Positions 2,415 through 33,430 of a DNA stretch of 39,892 nt are shown one piece after another (position 1 is the stretch's first letter; each line of letters starts with the position of its first letter). The stretch is from a virus. The translations under genes were made by a program, and so were the position numbers. Location: UHGV virus genome UHGV-0038300. The stretch is one strand, 5' to 3'. Below the pieces are notes generated by a model, which was not told the origin of the DNA, did no database searches, and saw nothing but the letters and a program-made list of their open reading frames with translations.

Positions 2415-4955
2415 TCATTTTTTTACATTGCCATTTTCAATGGCGAAAATTCTCTCTTCCATATTATCAATTCTCTCCCAGCATTGCTGAATTGATTTAA
2501 CAATAGGTGGGATGAATTCATCGTAACCAAGTGAGTAAACATCATCCCCACCATTTTTCAAGTGATGCTGTAGCCCACCGAACTCAACACCTAATTTTTC
2601 ACACAGTTTCAATACGTCCTGTGCAATAAACCAGTGATGGTATCGTTGACGTTTTTTACTGCCGTCAGGAGTTTTCTGCACTACTTCAAGATATTTTTCT
2701 TCGACATTCTCAATAGCTGATACAGTAATTCCATCAACATCTCGCTCTACTTTTTTTGGTACAATTCTTGTTTTTTCAATAACATCAACATAATCATCAC
2801 GCATATCCCAGCGACCATCGACAGGACGAAGCCCAAGGATAAATTCAATCCCCAGCAAGGTATCTCGGATATCTGTTTTATCACGCGCATCAGATCTGTT
2901 TTGCACAGTTCCATATACATATGTCGTTGTGGAAGAATTGCCAAGCTGCACCTGGTTACTTCCAGACACCCTTGCATCATTGCCAACAGTTGTTGTGTTG
3001 GTAAGTGATGATGTGCTTTCCCCTGATTGAGTTAATCTACCTGAATTATGTCCAATAGCCGTGTTTAATGCGCCGGTTGTATTTGTGACAAGAGAGCCAG
3101 ACCCAATTGCAACGTTACTGCTTCCCGATGTTGTTCCTTTTAATGCCTGCTGTCCAACCGCAACATTATTATCACCCGTTGCTGCTATAAGTGCCATGTG
3201 ACCAATAGAAACGGTAAATGAACCTAGCGTTTGAGTTTCACCGCATGCCCCATAACCAATTACAACAACATTATCTGTAATTGTTGACTCGGTTGCCGCT
3301 CCAGCACCAATAACAACGCTTTCATTCCCGGCAAGATTCTTGCGCATTGCGAACATTCCAATGCCAACATTATCATGCCCAGTCCCTGTACCTGCTGCCT
3401 CCGCAGCACCAAGACAGTTTCCCGCTCTGTAGCCAACCATGGTGTTATTTGAACCAATAGAGAAGTCTCCGGAAAAAGAGCCTACGTATACACTATTAGA
3501 CTGAGAGTAATCTCCAGGATTTCCATTCGCCCGATATCCTACTGCAACTGTATAAATAGTATCTGGAGCCTCAGCCATGGCCTCAAAGCCAACTCCAACG
3601 TTATATCTACCGCCCTTAACTTTTTCTCCTGCACCAAGTCCGAAGAATGAGTTATAGCTCCCGGTTGTTAGCCACTCGCCAGCAACAGAACCTACAGCAG
3701 TGTTTCCTGTTCCAGTACATCGATACAAAGTCAGGAAGCCAACTCCGGTATTATTATTTCCTGAAATATTACTCATCAATGATTTTGACCCAATGGCAGT
3801 ATTGTTAACACCATCGGTCAGATCCTGTAACGCTCGCGGGCCAAATGCTGTATTATCGTAACCCTTTGGCGCTGTTGTTGGATCTGGTAACTCAGGGGTT
3901 AGTTTTTCACCACCACCACCATTGGCACAAAGATTGTAAGATCGAATAAATTCAGCCACTGGCCCAAGTTTTAAATAACCATTGGCAATATTAATTCTGA
4001 CACTTACATTAACTGAGCTACCAGGAGCTTCTATTGTCCTGTCATCAACCCAGGTAAAACTCTGTGGTATCCCGTCATAAGTTAATGTCACATCTCCTTT
4101 ATCATTATAATTATAGAACAATGTATAACGCTCATTTATAGATTCAGAACCTGATGATCCTCCTCTCCTCCACCACTCTGCATTATCAAAAATAAGTAAT
4201 CCCGGACCATAATATTTAGCTTTCTGCCCCAAAATCATAGGGCTTGATAATCTCCATACCCCCTCAGGAACATATATATTGCTACTTATTCTTTCAGCAT
4301 TATTAAAAGCAGTATCACATAGCTCGTCACCACCTTCTTTAGCTCCAAAGTCCAGAACACTGACAGTATCCCGCATCTTATCCTGGAACGTTCGATATAC
4401 TGCTCCAGAACCATACTGAATAAACCAACCAAAACCACCAACAACCCCGGCGATTGCAGCATCGACATAATTACGCATTGAGCGATTATTTACAGCGTCC
4501 TGCTCAAGTGATGGATCTGCAAGGTTAGAAATTCTGTTTTGCTTTGCATCGTAATATTTTGCAAGCAAAGATGGTTTCATCAATGCACGTCTGAACCATC
4601 CAAAACATTGCTGGATCAGCATCGTCAGATAGTCAAAGGCATCTTCATGCACCTCGGGGAAAAATTTTCCCTGATTACGAAGATCAGTCTCCTGCACCAC
4701 ATCAAGCACACGATCTATCGTAATTCGCCATCCAGCAGCAAGCGGCGACGGAAGAACAACAGAACCGCCACTATAAGTGCCCGCCCCAGTTACCGTATAA
4801 CCGGTATCCAGAACCAATTCTGTTACGTTCCCGTTCAGGTCAGACACCTGAACAACCAGGTCGGATTTTTTGAAAATACGGAAGGTGTACGGGAATGATG
4901 TCGTAATGCCGTTACCGGTGTATTCGTTGTGGTCAACTTCGGTTGAGACCGTCAT
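2415..4955 (-). CDS. Tail fibre with glycine-rich fibre repeats and a C-terminal peptidase S74 intramolecular chaperone domain
   Basis: N-terminal TGNGITTSFPYTF fibre-anchor-like motif, long G/N/S-rich repeats, and the C-terminal autoproteolysis motif ...NRSDARDKTDI... followed by a chaperone-like domain. Confidence 0.85.
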   Translation of the reverse strand: MTVSTEVDHNEYTGNGITTSFPYTFRIFKKSDLVVQVSDLNGNVTELVLDTGYTVTGAGTYSGGSVVLPSPLAAGWRITIDRVLDVVQETDLRNQGKFFPEVHEDAFDYLTMLIQQCFGWFRRALMKPSLLAKYYDAKQNRISNLADPSLEQDAVNNRSMRNYVDAAIAGVVGGFGWFIQYGSGAVYRTFQDKMRDTVSVLDFGAKEGGDELCDTAFNNAERISSNIYVPEGVWRLSSPMILGQKAKYYGPGLLIFDNAEWWRRGGSSGSESINERYTLFYNYNDKGDVTLTYDGIPQSFTWVDDRTIEAPGSSVNVSVRINIANGYLKLGPVAEFIRSYNLCANGGGGEKLTPELPDPTTAPKGYDNTAFGPRALQDLTDGVNNTAIGSKSLMSNISGNNNTGVGFLTLYRCTGTGNTAVGSVAGEWLTTGSYNSFFGLGAGEKVKGGRYNVGVGFEAMAEAPDTIYTVAVGYRANGNPGDYSQSNSVYVGSFSGDFSIGSNNTMVGYRAGNCLGAAEAAGTGTGHDNVGIGMFAMRKNLAGNESVVIGAGAATESTITDNVVVIGYGACGETQTLGSFTVSIGHMALIAATGDNNVAVGQQALKGTTSGSSNVAIGSGSLVTNTTGALNTAIGHNSGRLTQSGESTSSLTNTTTVGNDARVSGSNQVQLGNSSTTTYVYGTVQNRSDARDKTDIRDTLLGIEFILGLRPVDGRWDMRDDYVDVIEKTRIVPKKVERDVDGITVSAIENVEEKYLEVVQKTPDGSKKRQRYHHWFIAQDVLKLCEKLGVEFGGLQHHLKNGGDDVYSLGYDEFIPPIVKSIQQCWERIDNMEERIFAIENGNVKK

Positions 4956-5430: not shown

Positions 5431-6159
5431 CTATCGTTTCGCTTTGTGCTCATCCCAGCACGTTTTGCACCATGCCATTAAGCCGTCCGCATTTTGATTA
5501 TTAGGGTAAAAGCTGGTTCGTTTTCTGCGGACATTACAAATTGGGCACCACTTCATATGGCGTGTATTCTTTGGGCCATCGAGACACCTTGCACACCACT
5601 TAGTCAATCCATCTGGATTTTTTGACGATTTCCTGAATTTTTCATATGGAAGGTTTATTCTGCATCGCAAGCACTGCTTGCTACCACTTGAAACTCTGTT
5701 AGCTGATTCTTCTTTTGGCGGCGATACAGAAGGTATTCTTGCTGGCTCTGATACTGCCTGAGGTGCTTTTTTAGATGACTGAGACGATATGTCACCACCA
5801 GGGAATCTTCCATGATATGCCGGACGCGTTGACACTCCAGGTGGAAGCTCAGCTGTAAACGGCTTTGGCTGAATCAGTTGCCTCTCTTTTGCTAACTCCT
5901 GCTGTTTATAATATGTCTGGATTACCGCACTATCATAAGCAGGAGGTGCGGAAATATTAGGCGCATTACCTCCAGTTTTTTGAAACTGAGTAGAGGTGTG
6001 TTCTATCACCTGTGTACGATTAATCGTTATCTCCCCATCTTCGGTCTTTATCGTTTTGTTATGATTAACGACCGTACGATCAGAGATCTTAGTCTTGTTC
6101 TGGTTGATAACGTAAATAATCACCGCAACCACACCAACAACTATCCAGAAAACTTCCAT
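5431..6159 (-). CDS. Membrane-anchored protein with a C-terminal duplicated Cys-rich (zinc-ribbon-like) module; function unknown
   Basis: N-terminal TM helix (MEVFWIVVGVVAVIIYVI), Pro/Ser-rich linker, then CLRC...WCARC and CPIC...WCKTC repeats; RBS gaggaaaag before the ATG; operator-like site just upstream. Confidence 0.6.
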   Translation of the reverse strand: MEVFWIVVGVVAVIIYVINQNKTKISDRTVVNHNKTIKTEDGEITINRTQVIEHTSTQFQKTGGNAPNISAPPAYDSAVIQTYYKQQELAKERQLIQPKPFTAELPPGVSTRPAYHGRFPGGDISSQSSKKAPQAVSEPARIPSVSPPKEESANRVSSGSKQCLRCRINLPYEKFRKSSKNPDGLTKWCARCLDGPKNTRHMKWCPICNVRRKRTSFYPNNQNADGLMAWCKTCWDEHKAKR

Positions 6160-6178: not shown

Positions 6179-6195
6179 ATTACCTTAAAGGTAAT
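6179..6195. promoter_or_regulatory. 17-bp palindromic operator-like site ATTACC-TTAAA-GGTAAT
   Basis: Perfect inverted repeat about 20 bp upstream of the 5431-6159 gene start (minus strand). Confidence 0.6.
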
Positions 6196-6288: not shown

Positions 6289-6554
6289 TTTACATCGCAC
6301 TCCTCTTGTGCCATAGTAATCGGGCACTGGCAAAATCCAGTGCCGGGATTGGTCTCCCGGATTACTACAGAGGCACATATGCCGCATAAGCGGTTTTTTT
6401 ATGTGTAAAGCGCACCTATTCTATGGTGGGCTGTGTGGGGGCACCGAAAGGTGCGCCGGGTTCCTTTGTAGCCGGTAAGACCAACTCTGCACAGTTCACC
6501 ACCATCTGATTGGTCTCAGCGGTGGTGATTAACCTAACTACAAAGGTGATCGCC

Positions 6555-7247
6555 ATGAATACCAAACCTTCCATCTTTTCCTTTGAGTCATCCTGCCAGA
6601 TCCGTATGTTCATGATTGACGGAGAACCTTGGTTTGTCACCAAAGATGTGTGCAATGCTTTGAATATTGATGTTACACAAGCGAGAAAACTTGATAAAAA
6701 AGGCTGGAACAAAAAGGGGCTGTATTCAATACAGACCCCTGGTGGAATACAAGAACTATCCATCGTTTCAGAATCAGGTCTCTACATCCTTATTCTGCGT
6801 TGCAAAGAGGCAATGACAGGGGGAACGAGAGCATTCAGATTTCTTGAATGGGTTACAGGTGAGGTTCTTCCTCAGATCCGCCGCACAGGAAGTTACATTA
6901 AAAACTCGCTCCCGCAGGAAGAACGCATAAAGATGGTTGCCGACCAGGTAGCCAACGCCACGGCGTCAGCAGTAATGCAGGCGATGAAGATAGAGAACAA
7001 AACCTACAGTGCCCCGCTGAAGCCCGGCTACCGCAGCCTGATTCATTCGCCGTCTGGTGTTCTCGGCCTGACGGAGAACTCACTGCTGATGAATTTGCTG
7101 AACCAGTTACAGGAAGACGGGCATGATGTATCGGGCGCGGCAGCGGAGCTGACCACCATGTTCTGCTACATCGTCGGTGTGAGCAAATGCCTGCGTGACA
7201 TCCAGACTCACGCGGAGTACATCAACGACAAAGCAGGGTTCTTCTGA
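6555..7247 (+). CDS. Antirepressor with an N-terminal Bro-N domain
   Basis: N-terminus ...FSFESSCQIRMFMIDGEPWFVTKDVCNALNI... is typical of Bro-N/Ant proteins; RBS aaggtga before ATG 6555 (the listed ORF begins at an upstream TTG). Confidence 0.8.
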   Translation: MNTKPSIFSFESSCQIRMFMIDGEPWFVTKDVCNALNIDVTQARKLDKKGWNKKGLYSIQTPGGIQELSIVSESGLYILILRCKEAMTGGTRAFRFLEWVTGEVLPQIRRTGSYIKNSLPQEERIKMVADQVANATASAVMQAMKIENKTYSAPLKPGYRSLIHSPSGVLGLTENSLLMNLLNQLQEDGHDVSGAAAELTTMFCYIVGVSKCLRDIQTHAEYINDKAGFF

Positions 7248-7311
7248 CGGCGGCGGCACAGGGATGTGCCTTTAAAATAATCATTGGCGATGTGATGTAG
7301 ATTCGCGTAAT

Positions 7312-7328
7312 ATTACCTTAAAGGTAAA
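7312..7328. promoter_or_regulatory. 17-bp operator-like site ATTACC-TTAAA-GGTAAA
   Basis: Inverted repeat about 25 bp upstream of the 7354 start codon. Confidence 0.55.
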
Positions 7329-7353
7329 CCATGTGTTTACATGAGGAGGAGAT

Positions 7354-7563
7354 ATGGGATTTTGGTTCGCTCGTACAAAAACGAGGGATAATGCACCCAG
7401 CCCTCAGGCAAAAAATGCAGAAGTTCCGGCGTCAGCGCAGGTTAACAAGCGTGGTGGAGTATATATCTCATCACAGCAAATTTCTGAGCTTCCTGAGGTT
7501 AAGGAGATGCGTCGTCTCGCTGCTGCAATTGTTAAACAGGATCTTGCCACTGTAAGGAAGTAG
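7354..7563 (+). CDS. Small hypothetical protein (69 aa), first gene of a two-gene accessory module
   Basis: Strong RBS gaggaggag 6 nt before the ATG; its stop TAG overlaps the GTG start of the next ORF by one nucleotide. Confidence 0.55.
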   Translation: MGFWFARTKTRDNAPSPQAKNAEVPASAQVNKRGGVYISSQQISELPEVKEMRRLAAAIVKQDLATVRK

Positions 7564-8429
7564 TGTTGCTAGCTCTTCTAATTATCCCAATCCTGGTTAG
7601 CGGTTATATTATGATAACCGCTAACCAGTATCATTATTTCCGTTTATACCGACACGAAGGCCAGCTTCTTTATATGAAAGTAGCGGCACTAGGTACATAT
7701 TGCCTTGTTGCATCAGTAATAATTGCAGCCGCTATAAAATATAAATGGCCTGATTTTCACCTAGTTCACGATATGGTGGAAACTTTTAATGTAACATCAA
7801 AACCAGAAACAGATAGAATTTACATGTGGCTGCTTCTTCTCTCAGCCACATCCATTTGCTTCTCTTTGTGTTATGTGTCTGTTGTGTGGGTGAAAGATTT
7901 TCTTCTTGGTTGTTTTTATAAACGTGATATTTACGAGCAAAAAACAGAGGCAATGAAGGCCAGAGTACTGCGAAAAACTTACTCGCAAGGTTCTTTAGAC
8001 TTACTATTGCTTGATGCTATTGAATCGGATCCTAAACGACCAATGCTGATTACTTTATCATCAAACAAAGTGTATGTTGGAATAATAAATGGTTCTGGTG
8101 AACCAACGGAAAATCAGGGTCCGCATCAGCACATATCTTTTGTTCCTTTAATGTCAGGATACAGGAACAAAGAAAACTTATCTGTCACATTCACTAATGC
8201 TTATCCAGGAGAAATACAGGTCAAGCGGACTGCAGCAATAAGAGGAATTAGCAGAAAGAAAGTGCCAGGACTTGAGATCATGGTGTCTATTGACGAAATA
8301 AGTTATATATCATGGTTTGATTTTGAAGTATATAAAGCAACAAATAACAAAGTAGAATCCAGGGGGCACGTTATTCGTGTTACCAAAAATGGAAGAAATA
8401 TATATCAAAGAAATAGCAAAAAAGAATAG
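7563..8429 (+). CDS. Hypothetical membrane protein (3 N-terminal TM helices plus a ~170-aa soluble C-terminal domain); candidate exclusion/abortive-infection-type accessory protein
   Basis: Long ORF with hydrophobic helices at about aa 2-18, 35-58 and 85-110; markedly AT-rich compared with flanking phage genes; exact start (GTG 7563 or a nearby codon) uncertain. Confidence 0.6.
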   Translation: MLLALLIIPILVSGYIMITANQYHYFRLYRHEGQLLYMKVAALGTYCLVASVIIAAAIKYKWPDFHLVHDMVETFNVTSKPETDRIYMWLLLLSATSICFSLCYVSVVWVKDFLLGCFYKRDIYEQKTEAMKARVLRKTYSQGSLDLLLLDAIESDPKRPMLITLSSNKVYVGIINGSGEPTENQGPHQHISFVPLMSGYRNKENLSVTFTNAYPGEIQVKRTAAIRGISRKKVPGLEIMVSIDEISYISWFDFEVYKATNNKVESRGHVIRVTKNGRNIYQRNSKKE

Positions 8430-8521
8430 CCCGCGCTGCGGGCTTTTTTGTGGACGAAACAAAAGTCAGTGCTACACTCATTGACGCCACATTGAGGTGG
8501 CTTATAGATGGAAATTTCACA

Positions 8522-8683
8522 ATGAAAAAAGCATTTGCTGCACTGTTCGTTTTGTTGTCTCTGGTAGCTTCAACTCAGGCCTTTGCCGGTCGTTGTCAGC
8601 ACGACAGCGATACTGCTGCAGACGGCTCCCGCTGCGGTGGGCGTTCTGCGGATTCCCGCCCGGGCGGCGGTGGCATTCGTTAA
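8522..8683 (+). CDS. Small secreted peptide candidate (53 aa; signal peptide then a Gly/Arg/Cys-rich tail)
   Basis: MKKAFAALFVLLSLVASTQAFA|GRC... has a classic Sec signal peptide; sigma70-like -35 TTGACG (8481-8486) and -10 TATAGA (8503-8508) upstream; the RBS is weak. Confidence 0.4.
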   Translation: MKKAFAALFVLLSLVASTQAFAGRCQHDSDTAADGSRCGGRSADSRPGGGGIR

Positions 8684-8875: not shown

Positions 8876-11350
8876 TTATTGCGGAGTGACATCCTGAGGT
8901 CGCCACCAGTATGTCTGGTTAAACTCTTTCTTCGAACGTTGCTCCATTTTACGCAAATAACCTGGTGAAAAATACTCCTGCATCTGGTTAAAGATCATGT
9001 GATCGAGAGCCGCCTTTAAGTACCAGAGATTCGCACCTGGCATCAGACCTTTCCCCAGCTTGACCAGATCACCACCAGTCTGCTCATTCTTCCCTTCCAC
9101 AGCATTTAACGGTATGCCCTGAGCAATCTTCACTACGTCATCAACCAGACCAGCTACCGGGCCAAGCATCGACGCCAGCGCGCCGCTTCCGTACCTAGTG
9201 TGATCTGACAATAAAAAGTCACCGTAAAGGCCAAGACCACCACCTTTCAGTAGAGCACCAAGCCAAAATTTAGCAGCATCTTCTCCTGTCATCTCACGAG
9301 GATTACGACCAGACGCAAGGTCGTTAAGTTGCTGCGACAAAGCGCCAAGAATGGTCGTACTGGCAATAAACGTCGCAATATATGCCGCACGCCCACCAGC
9401 AGACGGCATACCCATAGCGCGTGACCAGTGACGCATAACCACCGAGATAGGGAACGATTTAAACAGGAAAACACTTCTCGTTAATTCACCTTTCCATGTT
9501 CCACGCTGAATACCAGAACCGGTTATCAGTTGCTCACGTGCTCCCGGTGTAATAACAGCCATATCAACTTCTTCAGTTACGGCACCGAGCAGTTTACGCA
9601 TTGCCTCAAATTTCACGCGTTCAGACTCACCAAGATGTTTAACTGCTGAATCAGGGATACGCATAATGCTTTCCGGTGTCAGCATCGTATTATTACCGTT
9701 CCCCCAGTCCTCCTGTTGCGCCAGCTTCCATACGCTCCAGTCTGTGTCAGTAATCCCTTTGCTTTTCAGGATACGAAAATCAGAGTCATCGAGGCTACGA
9801 AGGTCTGGTGTCCGTGACACTACTTCTCCCAGGCTTCCCATCATGGTTACGCCATAGGCGCGCTTGTGCGCATCTGACCATGCTGTAAGCCCACTGGCAC
9901 GCATTACCGCCGTTGCCGCCCAACGAGACACTGACGGCCCCATATTATCCATCGCCCAGCGGTTAACGCTGCCAAGTAGAGATTCCATCGCCAGACCAGC
10001 GCGGCGCGCCCGCGCAAGTTCTGTACGGTTCGTTGGGTCCATAGCTTCAAGCTGGTTGCGGAATAACTGGTTCATTGGAAGGTTGGTAACCTTCGCAGAC
10101 AGATACATGGTTCCAAGATCAGAGAACGATGACAGCAACGCGGATCCGAGTCTGCTGGCAACCAGCCAGTTGCGGATATTGTCAGACCATCGCGCGATGT
10201 GCGGATTCGCTACAGGCTGTGTCTTTCCGGAAATAAAGTTGTACAGATTCTCTGTGTTGTTCGCCAGCCGCTCGACTTTACCGGTTTTACTCGGGTTAGC
10301 TGTTGCCGTTTCTGCCTTAACCTGATCAAGAAGGGAGCGGAAAACATGATCGGGGTTTGGACCATATGTTTCCACCAGAGCAATATCTTTACTGATACCT
10401 TCCAGGTGACCGACCATGATTTCCCATAGAGAGCGATCACCATAAAGTTGTTGATATTGGAGATAGGAATCTGCATCTTTGAAATGTATCTGTCGTGATG
10501 CATTACCACGGTTAGCACGTGCGCCGGAAATTCGCATTCCGGTATCAGTAAGCTTATTCAGCCCACCAGTAGCGATCGTGTTATAAGCCTCTCCAAGAAA
10601 TGCAGACAACTCGGCATCGTTCATCAGTTGTCCATCGGCTCGGGTATAATATTTGCGATCCAGCTTACCTATAACATCGCCAACCCACTTATCCTTTGAT
10701 ACCGCCCCAACCTTTTCCATAGAATGATGTTGAGGGATCCCCCAGTTTTCGAGATAGCCAATGTCCCCACCAGCATCATTAAACCGGCGGCGCAGCAGCT
10801 CTGTAACTTCTCTCCACGCCTTAGCACCTTTTCTTGCTTTAGCATTGCCAGTATTTTGCCCTCGCATTTCATATACCAGGTCACGCACGCCAGCTTCATC
10901 TTCAAACAGGCCAAAAAAGCGAGGATCAACTGCTTCAAATGCCTCTTGCAATTGACTCAATGCATAATCACGAGTGGCTTTTGTTCTGGACTCAACAGAG
11001 AGGAAATTCGATTTACCGTCTGCATTAAAAGCAATAGTACGGTTAAGAGCGCCAAGTTTCCCATCAGCCCCTTGATAGCTATTGATAAATTTATCCAATC
11101 TCTGACGTGCGGCTATAGTGAGGGCCACACGACGTTTCTTTAATGCCGCTTCTCGCTGTAATTCTTCAGATGCCAATTGTGCTGCACGATATAGCCGCTC
11201 TGATTCGGAAAGTTGTCTCCACGACATCGGGTCATCACGAGCAATGGAGCGCATATTTCGATAAATGCGGTCTTCAATGTTCTGTATTTCTCGCGCCGTT
11301 AACGTGCGCTGCGCCGCCTGCTGGACCGCTTGTATACATTCCTGTCTCAT
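8876..11350 (-). CDS. Large internal virion / DNA-ejection protein (gp16-position in a T7-like order)
   Basis: 824-aa ORF at the end of the structural operon after two other large ejection-type proteins; no enzymatic motif recognised. Confidence 0.6.
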   Translation of the reverse strand: MRQECIQAVQQAAQRTLTAREIQNIEDRIYRNMRSIARDDPMSWRQLSESERLYRAAQLASEELQREAALKKRRVALTIAARQRLDKFINSYQGADGKLGALNRTIAFNADGKSNFLSVESRTKATRDYALSQLQEAFEAVDPRFFGLFEDEAGVRDLVYEMRGQNTGNAKARKGAKAWREVTELLRRRFNDAGGDIGYLENWGIPQHHSMEKVGAVSKDKWVGDVIGKLDRKYYTRADGQLMNDAELSAFLGEAYNTIATGGLNKLTDTGMRISGARANRGNASRQIHFKDADSYLQYQQLYGDRSLWEIMVGHLEGISKDIALVETYGPNPDHVFRSLLDQVKAETATANPSKTGKVERLANNTENLYNFISGKTQPVANPHIARWSDNIRNWLVASRLGSALLSSFSDLGTMYLSAKVTNLPMNQLFRNQLEAMDPTNRTELARARRAGLAMESLLGSVNRWAMDNMGPSVSRWAATAVMRASGLTAWSDAHKRAYGVTMMGSLGEVVSRTPDLRSLDDSDFRILKSKGITDTDWSVWKLAQQEDWGNGNNTMLTPESIMRIPDSAVKHLGESERVKFEAMRKLLGAVTEEVDMAVITPGAREQLITGSGIQRGTWKGELTRSVFLFKSFPISVVMRHWSRAMGMPSAGGRAAYIATFIASTTILGALSQQLNDLASGRNPREMTGEDAAKFWLGALLKGGGLGLYGDFLLSDHTRYGSGALASMLGPVAGLVDDVVKIAQGIPLNAVEGKNEQTGGDLVKLGKGLMPGANLWYLKAALDHMIFNQMQEYFSPGYLRKMEQRSKKEFNQTYWWRPQDVTPQ

Positions 11351-32460: not shown

Positions 32461-32691
32461 TCATGAGTAGAAGAAGTATGCCAGTTCTGCTTTTGAGCGC
32501 AGCCATTGCCTTGTTTTACAGGCTTTAAAAAGCCCATTCATCAATACTTTACCTGGCATTTTGCGCTTACCTGTTAAGTGAGTCTGGATATAGTGACTCG
32601 TCGTTCCGGCTTCCTGTGCGAAGGCTTCACGCTCATCCGGAGTAAGTGCAAGCCAGTGCTTTTTGAAATCGAAATGTCCGTTATCGCTCAT
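32461..32691 (-). CDS. Cro/YdaS-like small HTH regulator
   Basis: 76 aa, divergent from the repressor gene; ...AQEAGTTSHYIQTHLTGKRKMPGKV... resembles YdaS/Cro-type HTH proteins. Confidence 0.6.
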   Translation of the reverse strand: MSDNGHFDFKKHWLALTPDEREAFAQEAGTTSHYIQTHLTGKRKMPGKVLMNGLFKACKTRQWLRSKAELAYFFYS

Positions 32692-32845: not shown

Positions 32846-33430
32846 ATGAAAAGTATCCAGGACGTCCGCAGGCAAAATCTCAACGACTTGATCGACCGTG
32901 AATTCAATGGTGTTCAGACGCGGATGGCAGAAAAACTTGGAACTCAGGCAAATCTGGTAAACCGCTGGGCTCTTGGCAAGAAGGTTATCGGCGACCAGGT
33001 TGCGCGAAAAATTGAAGCTGCCGCCAATAAACCACGTAACTGGCTTGATATCGATCGCTCGCTTTCTCAGGAAGGTTTTCAGCCTGTCGGCCCAAGCGAC
33101 ATTGGTCAGCTGGCGGCTCACAACCTGGAACGCTGGATGAGCGAAAGCCGCGACCTTTCAACACAGGGAAAACTTCACCGCGCATCCGGCGTCGCCCAGG
33201 TGACAATCAGCCGCCTGTTAAACAATGAGGTCAGCGTTTCCATTTCCACCCTGGAGAATGTTGCATCCGCATTCGGGCGTCACGGCTATGAATTACTGAT
33301 TCACCCGCACGACCCTGCGACCATCAACTATGACCGCTCGCGCTACGCATTGTTACCCGAAACCGAGAAAGCAAAGATCGAAAGTTACATTGAATTTGTC
33401 ATCAACCAGAACGAAAAAAACAAACAATAA
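32846..33430 (+). CDS. CI-like prophage repressor with an N-terminal XRE-type HTH, a second HTH-like segment and no LexA/S24 peptidase domain
   Basis: HTH ...VQTRMAEKLGTQANLVNRWALGKK...; no Ser-Lys peptidase signature seen; divergent from the cro-like gene and followed by a strong terminator. Confidence 0.65.
   Translation: MKSIQDVRRQNLNDLIDREFNGVQTRMAEKLGTQANLVNRWALGKKVIGDQVARKIEAAANKPRNWLDIDRSLSQEGFQPVGPSDIGQLAAHNLERWMSESRDLSTQGKLHRASGVAQVTISRLLNNEVSVSISTLENVASAFGRHGYELLIHPHDPATINYDRSRYALLPETEKAKIESYIEFVINQNEKNKQ

Follow-up and report, generated by a model that had tools for sequence, protein, structure and literature searches.

Does the two-gene cassette that lies between the tailspike region and the virion structural genes of a temperate phage protect the cell that carries it, or does it serve the phage or the host in another way? 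The question is raised by UHGV virus genome UHGV-0038300, a DNA stretch of 39,892 nucleotides (referred to as the window) belonging to a phiV10/epsilon15-like temperate podovirus. A sequence-only reading of this DNA had singled out a small gene (7354-7563) and a large gene (7563-8429) as a candidate for an undescribed membrane-based defence or exclusion system. Here, we report that the two genes form a tightly coupled unit that is conserved across Proteobacteria and that the large product is, in the predicted model, an inner-membrane protein composed of three transmembrane (TM) helices and a cytoplasmic Sm-like β-barrel. We consider it possible, if somewhat short of probable, that the pair protects the carrier cell or element against other phages at the inner membrane, via superinfection exclusion or abortive infection. 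We propose this role because of the association of the family with defence hotspots and mobile cargo and because of the sieA-equivalent position of the pair in the window.

The coupled pair and its two products

Translational coupling of the two open reading frames (ORFs) was confirmed, since both are located on the + strand and the TAG stop codon of the small ORF (7561-7563) shares one G with the GTG start codon of the large ORF, resulting in a 1-nt overlap. The strong ribosome-binding site (RBS) previously noticed ahead of the pair is also present (GAGGAGGAG; Table 1), and an internal RBS, TAAGGAAG, is located within the end of the small gene. The large gene could equally well start at a TTG codon (7566), which is better spaced from the internal AAGGA (7554-7558). 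The RefSeq/PGAP annotation (WP_242456796; locus L001, 6312-7130) starts the large gene at an internal ATG (7611). This assignment is wrong, because it cuts off the first TM helix, which is invariant. The true start is GTG 7563 or TTG 7566, since the N-terminal segment ALL(L/I)IPILVSGY is invariant among homologues.

The two window proteins match phrog_5739 (small protein, E = 7e-52) and phrog_3630 (large protein, E = 1e-113), two PHROGs of unknown function that together define a large, unnamed family that is neither E. coli specific nor phage specific. With a cutoff of E ≤ 1e-3, a profile search recovered 2,380 clusters (50% identity), and a cutoff of E ≤ 1e-10 left 951; almost all were 250 to 300 residues (aa) in length. 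A scan of GTDB genomes revealed 80 loci in Alpha-, Beta-, and Gammaproteobacteria. The large protein of the window displays the features of the family, namely, the N-terminal LLxxPxLVSG(Y/F) helix, the (D/E)GQ(L/Y)LY motif, and the C-terminal KVYVG ... SGYR ... FD series. Its partner does so as well, being a protein of 60 to 90 aa encoded immediately upstream on the same strand and containing the core (V/I)xG(R/K)G followed by a helix. Neither protein belongs to a family of Pfam, NCBIfam, or PADLOC, and annotation based on these three resources therefore misses the family entirely.

In 76 of 78 loci, an ORF of 60 to 90 aa terminates beside the large-gene start, and overall the partner is found immediately upstream in about 95% of loci. 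The circularity of finding the partner in this way was removed by training profiles on half of the non-redundant loci and testing them on the held-out loci, since the partner was then found adjacent to the large gene in 25 of 26 and 25 of 27 held-out loci. One other match was obtained in approximately 11,000 six-frame segments, and it proved to be the partner of locus L074 itself, located 54 nt upstream. Of 53 non-redundant loci, 51 have the two genes spaced by at most 25 nt, and 28 show an overlap or a gap of at most 5 nt. The partner core is conserved family-wide as (R/K)VVGRGT(V/L)xIDxxEV...F...A..IV, of which VNKRGGVYISSQQISELPEV in the window is a diverged copy. The small protein of the window is soluble and basic (12 Lys plus Arg versus 6 Asp plus Glu), and its AlphaFold (AF2) model (pLDDT of 67) comprises a disordered N terminus, a β-hairpin, and a long C-terminal helix. 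The hairpin sequence KRGGVY is the diverged form of the VVGRGT motif. An AbrB/MazE-like antitoxin fold, to which the pattern VxKRGGVYIxxxxIxxL might have pointed, was not supported, since a profile built on 44 sequences had no significant match among PDB sequences or in Pfam. On the structural side, the model, of moderate confidence, contains a hairpin and helices only.

Hydropathy analysis of the large protein revealed hydrophobic segments at residues 1 to 19, 40 to 58, and 90 to 108. Eight Lys and Arg residues directly follow the third segment, thereby indicating an N-out/C-in topology. The AlphaFold model computed from an alignment of 56 sequences (pLDDT of 83.7; pTM of 0.73) agrees with the three TM helices and with this topology. 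In the membrane domain, it comprises helices at residues 2 to 20, 33 to 61, and 81 to 117, which are followed by two linker helices and a β-rich domain. Thus, the N-terminal membrane portion and the soluble C-terminal domain discerned in the sequence-only reading are supported by hydropathy, charge, and modeling. The same reading had found no recognizable motif in the C-terminal domain, which holds at the sequence level for Pfam, NCBIfam, and PADLOC. At the structural level, the predicted model reveals an Sm/LSm/Hfq-like fold in which an N-terminal helix precedes a five-stranded antiparallel sheet with a strong bend. Foldseek searches against PDB and BFVD returned matches limited to the Sm part, those to Sm domains in BFVD being weak, and no full-length structural analogue. 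Remote-homology and fold searches thus provided an Sm-like fold for the large protein and no significant Pfam or PDB match for the small one. Sm1 and Sm2 motifs and RNA-binding residues were not found, Pfam LSM and Hfq models did not match, the family profile had no match among PDB sequences, and BLAST comparison of the large protein with E. coli Hfq detected no similarity. Invariant columns, taken from 56 diverse members, are reported for both domains in Table 1.

Mobile contexts and defence hotspots

Every context examined was mobile or accessory. The pair adjoins int and attP in Cronobacter phage phiES15, is located at prophage ends in Klebsiella and P. aeruginosa, and occupies a position comparable to that of the window in a podovirus-like prophage of Providencia. 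It is also found close to int, TraN, and TraG in an integrative and conjugative element (ICE) of V. cholerae, on an integrase-associated island in Methylovorus, and in the accessory region of IncC conjugative plasmids of Salmonella. In the defence hotspot located between gpA and the portal gene of P2-like phages, the pair stands alone in SEN4/SEN5, adjoins bSEFIR in a Klebsiella phage, and adjoins IetAS in E. coli, Citrobacter, and Scandinavium. Among the 103 immediate flanking ORFs of the 53 non-redundant loci, strong PADLOC matches included IetS (two ORFs), a CBASS cyclase, AbiLi, a retron-type reverse transcriptase, and AriA. The placement of the pair in an accessory island of the kind that hosts defence genes is therefore borne out by the recurrence of the family in known defence hotspots. 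The apparent enrichment is suggestive.

A possible link to the validated AC1 system (TM proteins plus TIR) or to the downstream TIR gene of the Klebsiella P2-like phage was considered. This link was rejected, as the TIR gene is bSEFIR, a single-gene system. The pair and bSEFIR are independent cassettes, since bSEFIR occurs without the pair in phage 500465-1. Two other neighbors were observed. At the prophage end of P. aeruginosa (loci L091 to L095, 8777-9271), a GvpU-like gene encoding 164 aa follows the pair after a 9-nt gap and has no PADLOC match; it may be a lineage-specific third component in this species. On IncC plasmid pSTY1-2010K-1587 (locus L105, 4872-6515), a gene encoding a 547-aa AAA ATPase is located just upstream of the pair. 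This ATPase has strong PADLOC matches to the RecD-like and PDC-S68 candidate defence helicases (E = 1e-44 to 2e-50), and its proximity hints at a small defence islet on this plasmid.

No paper on this family was found in the literature. The pair had been considered undescribed, which is inexact, since the family already appears in the survey of Rousset et al. 2022 (PMC9122126), where it was left unannotated. Candidate 57 of the P2 hotspot (Table S5B) is listed as two proteins with 75 occurrences, no domains, and "2 TM in protein 1," and candidate 43 as a single protein with 93 occurrences; neither was among the cloned systems (PMC9122126). Candidate 57 is the E. coli P2-prophage pair WP_021570510 plus WP_000457800, and candidate 43 aligned to the family profile with an hhalign probability of 99.4%. 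No other members of the family were found in the tables of that study. Candidate 57 belongs to the same protein family as the window pair; its small partner carries the family core (VVGRGA) and its large protein the same motifs. The two candidates and the window proteins nevertheless fall in paralogous branches, the protein of the related Citrobacter locus L017 being 37% identical to the window protein. Their locations also differ, the hotspot of P2-like myoviruses for the candidates versus the slot of a phiV10-like podovirus for the window pair. What is new is the fold assignment, the family-wide partner, the breadth, and the hotspot association of a family listed so far as "hypothetical + hypothetical." In the P4 hotspot, six of eight randomly chosen unknown loci were protective, and a 2026 study of the P2 and P4 hotspots validated loci unrelated to this family (PMC13586616). 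Bandua, Aernus, Toga, Reve, Crouga, and Hailong, all newly named systems of the P4 hotspot, were rejected as relatives based on their unrelated domain content. If the pair is protective, at least 168 (93 + 75) unexplained cargo entries of the E. coli P2 defence hotspot would be accounted for, and a widespread system, represented by about 2,400 clusters (50% identity) in three proteobacterial classes, would be added to the defence catalogue.

Accessory slots of temperate phages also hold anti-defence genes, and the pair could accordingly be counter-defence cargo helping the phage or element past host immunity, a role with which expression linked to the lytic switch (see below) would be compatible. 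However, known anti-defence proteins are mostly small soluble inhibitors, and a conserved integral membrane protein with a partner would be atypical among them, as would presence in the P2 defence hotspot and on plasmids. We regard this role as highly improbable.

The cargo slot and the probable phage-wide operator

In the window, the slot is bordered on one side by the tailspike gene (2415-4955, - strand) and the antirepressor gene Ant (6510-7247) and on the other side by virion structural genes (8876-11350 onward, - strand). Two sister phages reveal its organization. The site is empty in phiV10. In TL-2011b (locus L102, 3474-4173), it is occupied by a 59-aa ORF overlapping a gene for a YafO-family toxin, with the same leader, palindrome, and terminator as in the window. 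The pair is thus cargo acquired horizontally, as had been suspected from its composition, since the phiV10 site is empty and TL-2011b has a different two-gene cassette between this leader and this terminator. These comparisons show that the slot is a fixed leader-cargo-terminator expression frame inside which cassettes are exchanged. The positions of the cassette (1.1 kb) are clearly delimited (Table 1), and the slots of phiV10 (empty), TL-2011b (YafO), and the window phage provide natural near-isogenic comparisons.

The AT-richness reported for the large ORF in comparison to a backbone of about 50% GC was confirmed, its GC content being 36.9% (GC3 of 30%), whereas the window has 48.4% and the structural backbone 50.5%. 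It is conspicuous in the large ORF alone, the small ORF having a GC content of 47.6% (GC3 of 39%). The pair is thus missing at this site from close relatives (phiV10 and TL-2011b) and differs in composition from the backbone, two characteristics of a "moron." Regarding a third, the possession of expression signals of its own, the terminator is clear. No consensus sigma-70 promoter was found for the cassette in a promoter scan, a weak promoter-like sequence (TTGGCG-18-TAATAT, 7284-7313) was picked out by eye, and the leader contains a copy of a phage operator. The pair is best explained as an accessory operon (moron) that is self-contained, exchanged by horizontal transfer, and part of a large unnamed mobile-element family. 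At the DNA level, the module had no match among 50,697 phage records, in which relatives were detected at the protein level only, and it was present in 36 of 5,426 complete E. coli genomes.

Just past the terminator (8450-8683), a small gene encodes a Gly/Arg/Cys-rich peptide with a signal peptide or membrane anchor, matching phrog_3117 and phrog_14503 ("membrane associated protein," moron category). This gene is part of the insertion relative to phiV10, yet it is common to the window and TL-2011b. It has no PADLOC match.

The occupancy of the same slot by a toxin gene in TL-2011b bears on a first alternative, and the main rival, to a protective role, namely, that the pair is an addiction or stabilization module resembling a toxin-antitoxin system, with the membrane protein as the latent toxin and the small upstream protein as its labile antidote. 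The main outcome would then be stabilization of the mobile element, and any effect on phages would be secondary. Such a role overlaps mechanistically with abortive infection. As in type II toxin-antitoxin operons, including the YafO pair with the same leader and terminator, the small gene comes first, a stop/start overlap tightly couples the two genes, and the cassette is mobile cargo; the IncC conjugative plasmids and the ICE mentioned above are further carriers of the pair. In addition, the E. coli lineage combines a weak GTG/TTG start with a perfect 15-bp hairpin in the beginning of the large gene, which would lower expression of this gene relative to that of the small gene. This hairpin is followed by a T-rich tract, contains in its loop the ATG mis-called as a start by PGAP, and may be a brake or intragenic attenuator of membrane protein expression. 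Shorter stems of different sequences are present at the same codons in loci L017, L020, L074, and L090. The idea of a 5' hairpin common to the whole family was rejected, since a strong stem is confined to the E. coli lineage and a few other lineages have shorter ones. Across the family, the large gene starts with ATG in 45 of 53 loci and mostly lacks the hairpin, which argues against a toxin-antitoxin-like role. Moreover, neither protein matches a toxin or antitoxin family in Pfam, NCBIfam, or PDB, the small partner has no recognizable DNA-binding domain, and the operator in the leader is common to unrelated genes and does not indicate autoregulation. Finally, unlike the larger products of type II modules, that of the window is an integral membrane protein, and known membrane toxins do not resemble a three-TM protein of 250 to 300 aa that includes a folded cytoplasmic domain. 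We consider a toxin-antitoxin-like function to be unlikely.

The operator-like site reported ahead of the pair corresponds to a real palindrome, TTACCTTAAAGGTAA, which is a copy of the motif TTACC-N5-GGTAA. At 0 to 1 mismatch, this motif occurs at 15 sites in the window, versus 0.75 expected by chance. The idea that this palindrome serves the small protein alone as its operator was rejected, since the site belongs to a phage-wide set and also precedes the unrelated YafO cassette of TL-2011b. Every copy is located just upstream of a transcription unit. Paired copies flank the CI-like gene (32846-33430) and the Cro-like gene (32461-32691), including the cI/cro intergenic region, and others precede Ant, the integrase gene, early operons, and a gene on the - strand (5431-6159). 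The motif is also found ahead of Ant in phiV10, and it is lacking in 98 of 104 fetched loci. TTACC-N5-GGTAA is thus most likely the immunity repressor (CI/Cro) operator of this phage lineage, and the set of sites looks like a multi-site ("stoperator"-like) repressor regulon covering Ant, the integrase gene, and the cargo slot. The copy in the slot, 27 nt 5' of the small-gene start codon, would coincide with any proximal promoter or lie downstream of it. There is no space for a promoter 3' of the operator, and the cassette is therefore probably under negative control of the lysis-lysogeny switch, as judged from the position of this site. Through its 15 sites, this regulon may keep cargo genes silent or set the time of their expression.

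The gene at 5431-6159, which has an operator copy ahead of it at 6180, encodes a 242-aa protein with a TM helix at the N terminus and two zinc-ribbon modules (CxxC) in its C-terminal part. This protein matches phrog_6762 (unknown function), has weak matches to Pfam Stc1 and to the endonuclease VII and Lar-like PHROGs, and has no PADLOC match.

The operator raises a second alternative, according to which the cassette would be an accessory of the phage life cycle used on induction or infection and not in the lysogen, for example, for excluding competitors in lytic growth or for modulating membrane events such as DNA exit or entry and lysis timing. A probable CI/Cro site 27 nt ahead of the start codon, as found at Ant, the integrase gene, and early operons, is in agreement with such a role, as is the adjacent antirepressor gene. 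However, the family is also carried by an ICE, IncC plasmids, and small integrase-associated islands, which have no lytic cycle. It is also present in the P2 hotspot, of which the known cargo, old and tin, acts from the prophage (PMC9122126). The operator, moreover, belongs to the slot of this phage lineage rather than to the module, as deduced from its absence in most loci. A life cycle function appears quite unlikely.

Table 1. Features of the cassette and its surroundings, in window coordinates
Feature	Position	Strand	Description
Small partner gene	7354..7563	+	69 aa; ORF read from sequence; phrog_5739
Large gene	7563..8429	+	288 aa; inner-membrane protein with predicted cytoplasmic Sm-like domain; phrog_3630, homologues, AF2 model
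Membrane domain, residues 1-117	7563..7913	+	Three TM helices, N-out/C-in; invariant P9, G14, G33-Q34, L36-Y37, G44
Predicted cytoplasmic Sm/LSm/Hfq-like β-barrel, residues ~143-265	7989..8357	+	Motifs KVYVG, PxE, PLMSGYR, FTNxY, FD; invariant K169, Y171, G173, E183, S198-G199-Y200-R201; low-confidence insertion between strands 4 and 5
Shine-Dalgarno GAGGAGGAG of small gene	7343..7351	+	Sequence reading; 2-4 nt 5' of ATG
Internal RBS TAAGGAAG for large gene	7553..7560	+	Sequence reading; within the end of the small gene
Hairpin, codons 11-22 of large gene	7593..7628	+	Perfect 15-bp stem, 6-nt loop; RNA fold z = -3.7
Bidirectional intrinsic terminator	8428..8444	.	Strong; directly 3' of large-gene stop; also in TL-2011b cassette
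Palindrome TTACCTTAAAGGTAA in leader	7313..7327	.	TTACCTT-A-AAGGTAA, copy of TTACC-N5-GGTAA; one of 15 sites; motif also upstream of YafO cassette and Ant in sister phages
TTACC-N5-GGTAA sites	5060, 6180, 6273, 7313, 24945, 27743, 27761, 30383, 30445, 32391, 32728, 32776, 33488, 33550, 39669		
Entire insertion relative to phiV10 (empty site)	7258..8660	+	Leader, two genes, terminator, small secreted-protein gene; blastn homology stops at 7257 and restarts at 8661; phiV10 annotation
Swapped cargo proper relative to TL-2011b	7330..8420	+	blastn breakpoints 7329 and 8421; junction alignments; TL-2011b annotation

Possible function and other cargo of the window

Comparison of the P22 map with that of the window shows that the slot is the positional equivalent of P22 sieA, in agreement with the earlier remark that a location between structural and tail-fibre genes is a classic one for exclusion genes. 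Both genes are found between ejection or virion genes and the ant-tailspike region, in the orientation opposite to that of the virion genes and with expression signals of their own, and both encode inner-membrane proteins of temperate podoviruses. In contrast to the window pair, SieA is a single protein of 163 aa that has neither a partner nor an Sm-like domain. The RexAB system of lambda and Kiwa (KwaAB) resemble the window pair in comprising two genes, one for a membrane component and one for a cytoplasmic component, RexAB also being prophage borne, and the working model is similar, with a membrane effector or sensor under the control of a soluble partner. They differ in that the membrane protein of the window is the large one, with a folded cytoplasmic domain, and that its partner has only about 65 aa. 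Membership of the pair in the MscS, SieA, Rex, or Kiwa family was rejected, as support from sequence and structure was absent; the likeness is one of position or general logic only.

Several observations weigh against a protective role. No phage exclusion, defence, or toxicity phenotype was found to have been reported for the family. Searches of PADLOC-DB 2.0, which covers Rex, Kiwa, Zorya, Abi, PD-T4/T7/lambda, Rst, and other systems, gave no match for either window protein, and 56 family members produced two stray weak matches only (E = 0.002 to 0.004). Homology to SieA was not detected (hhalign probability of 0.4%). Many immediate neighbors in the 53 loci are housekeeping genes, and the enrichment in defence genes is modest. 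The Sm fold assignment is derived from a predicted model of a sequence devoid of Sm or Hfq similarity. Lastly, the position of the operator suggests repression of the cassette in the lysogen, and such repression agrees poorly with a protection that would be constitutive in lysogens.

The housekeeping neighbors and the architecture of the large protein are relevant to a third alternative, a role in host physiology or lysogenic conversion unrelated to phages, in which the protein would be a membrane channel, a stress sensor with an MscS-like layout, or a membrane-tethered RNA-binding protein. MscS has about 286 aa and consists of three N-terminal TM helices followed by a cytoplasmic Sm-like β domain, which forms a ring in the heptamer. 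The likeness of the window protein to MscS is an architectural analogy (three TM helices plus an Sm-like domain), since neither a match to Pfam MS_channel nor a structural match of TM3 plus the β domain was found. Sm and Hfq domains bind RNA, which could point to the third of these activities. In comparison to Sm/LSm/Hfq proteins and to the WYL ligand-sensing domains of BrxR, CapW, and DriD, the window domain has no detectable sequence similarity, is tethered to three TM helices, contains a long insertion between strands 4 and 5, and has no evident RNA-binding residues. FlgV (Borrelia BB0268) was rejected as a precedent for a membrane-anchored Sm-like protein because its paper shows that FlgV is not Sm-like. 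The surroundings of the slot are also compatible with lysogenic conversion, since the tailspike-proximal region of epsilon15-like phages carries seroconversion genes and gtrC adjoins the tailspike gene in the P22 map. We consider a host role of this type to be very unlikely.

For a protective role, the following mechanism can be envisaged. The large protein would be the effector. Its Sm-like domains would form a ring beneath the membrane, in the manner of Sm and Hfq proteins, and/or recognize a ligand, either nucleic acid or the partner. The TM helices, which are rich in conserved small and polar residues (P9, S13, G14, G44, S94, and S97), would thereby be gathered into a bundle. The small partner might dock on the Sm domain via its β-hairpin and helix, acting as a regulator or sensor that holds the complex inert. 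Infection would upset this balance, and the membrane domain would then block genome entry or collapse membrane integrity. In this phage, expression of the cassette would probably be tied to the CI/Cro switch via the multi-copy operator. If the pair is protective, a membrane-anchored Sm-like domain controlled by a micro-protein would be a new effector design. A broader and more tentative proposal, which we hold to be doubtful, is that the family represents immune effectors of a new, membrane-embedded class, in which a ring-forming, ligand-sensing Sm-like domain would gather three-TM subunits gated by the partner of about 65 aa. The "Sm-gated" pore or entry block that it would place on prophages, ICEs, and plasmids throughout Proteobacteria is a part of this proposal and equally tentative. 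If true, it would provide the first function for a membrane-tethered Sm-fold protein in bacteria.

Two other AT-rich regions were observed in the window. The region with the lowest GC content (2001-2500; 30.6%) comprises the 3' end of the tailspike gene and the DNA downstream of it, which contains short ORFs only. A second AT-rich island (36434-38181; 37 to 40% GC) adjoins the integrase gene. It contains overlapping genes for a DndB-like protein (PADLOC DndB, E = 6e-38) and for a type II DNA methyltransferase (E = 2e-77). As judged from these matches, the two genes are likely another defence or epigenetic cargo pair.

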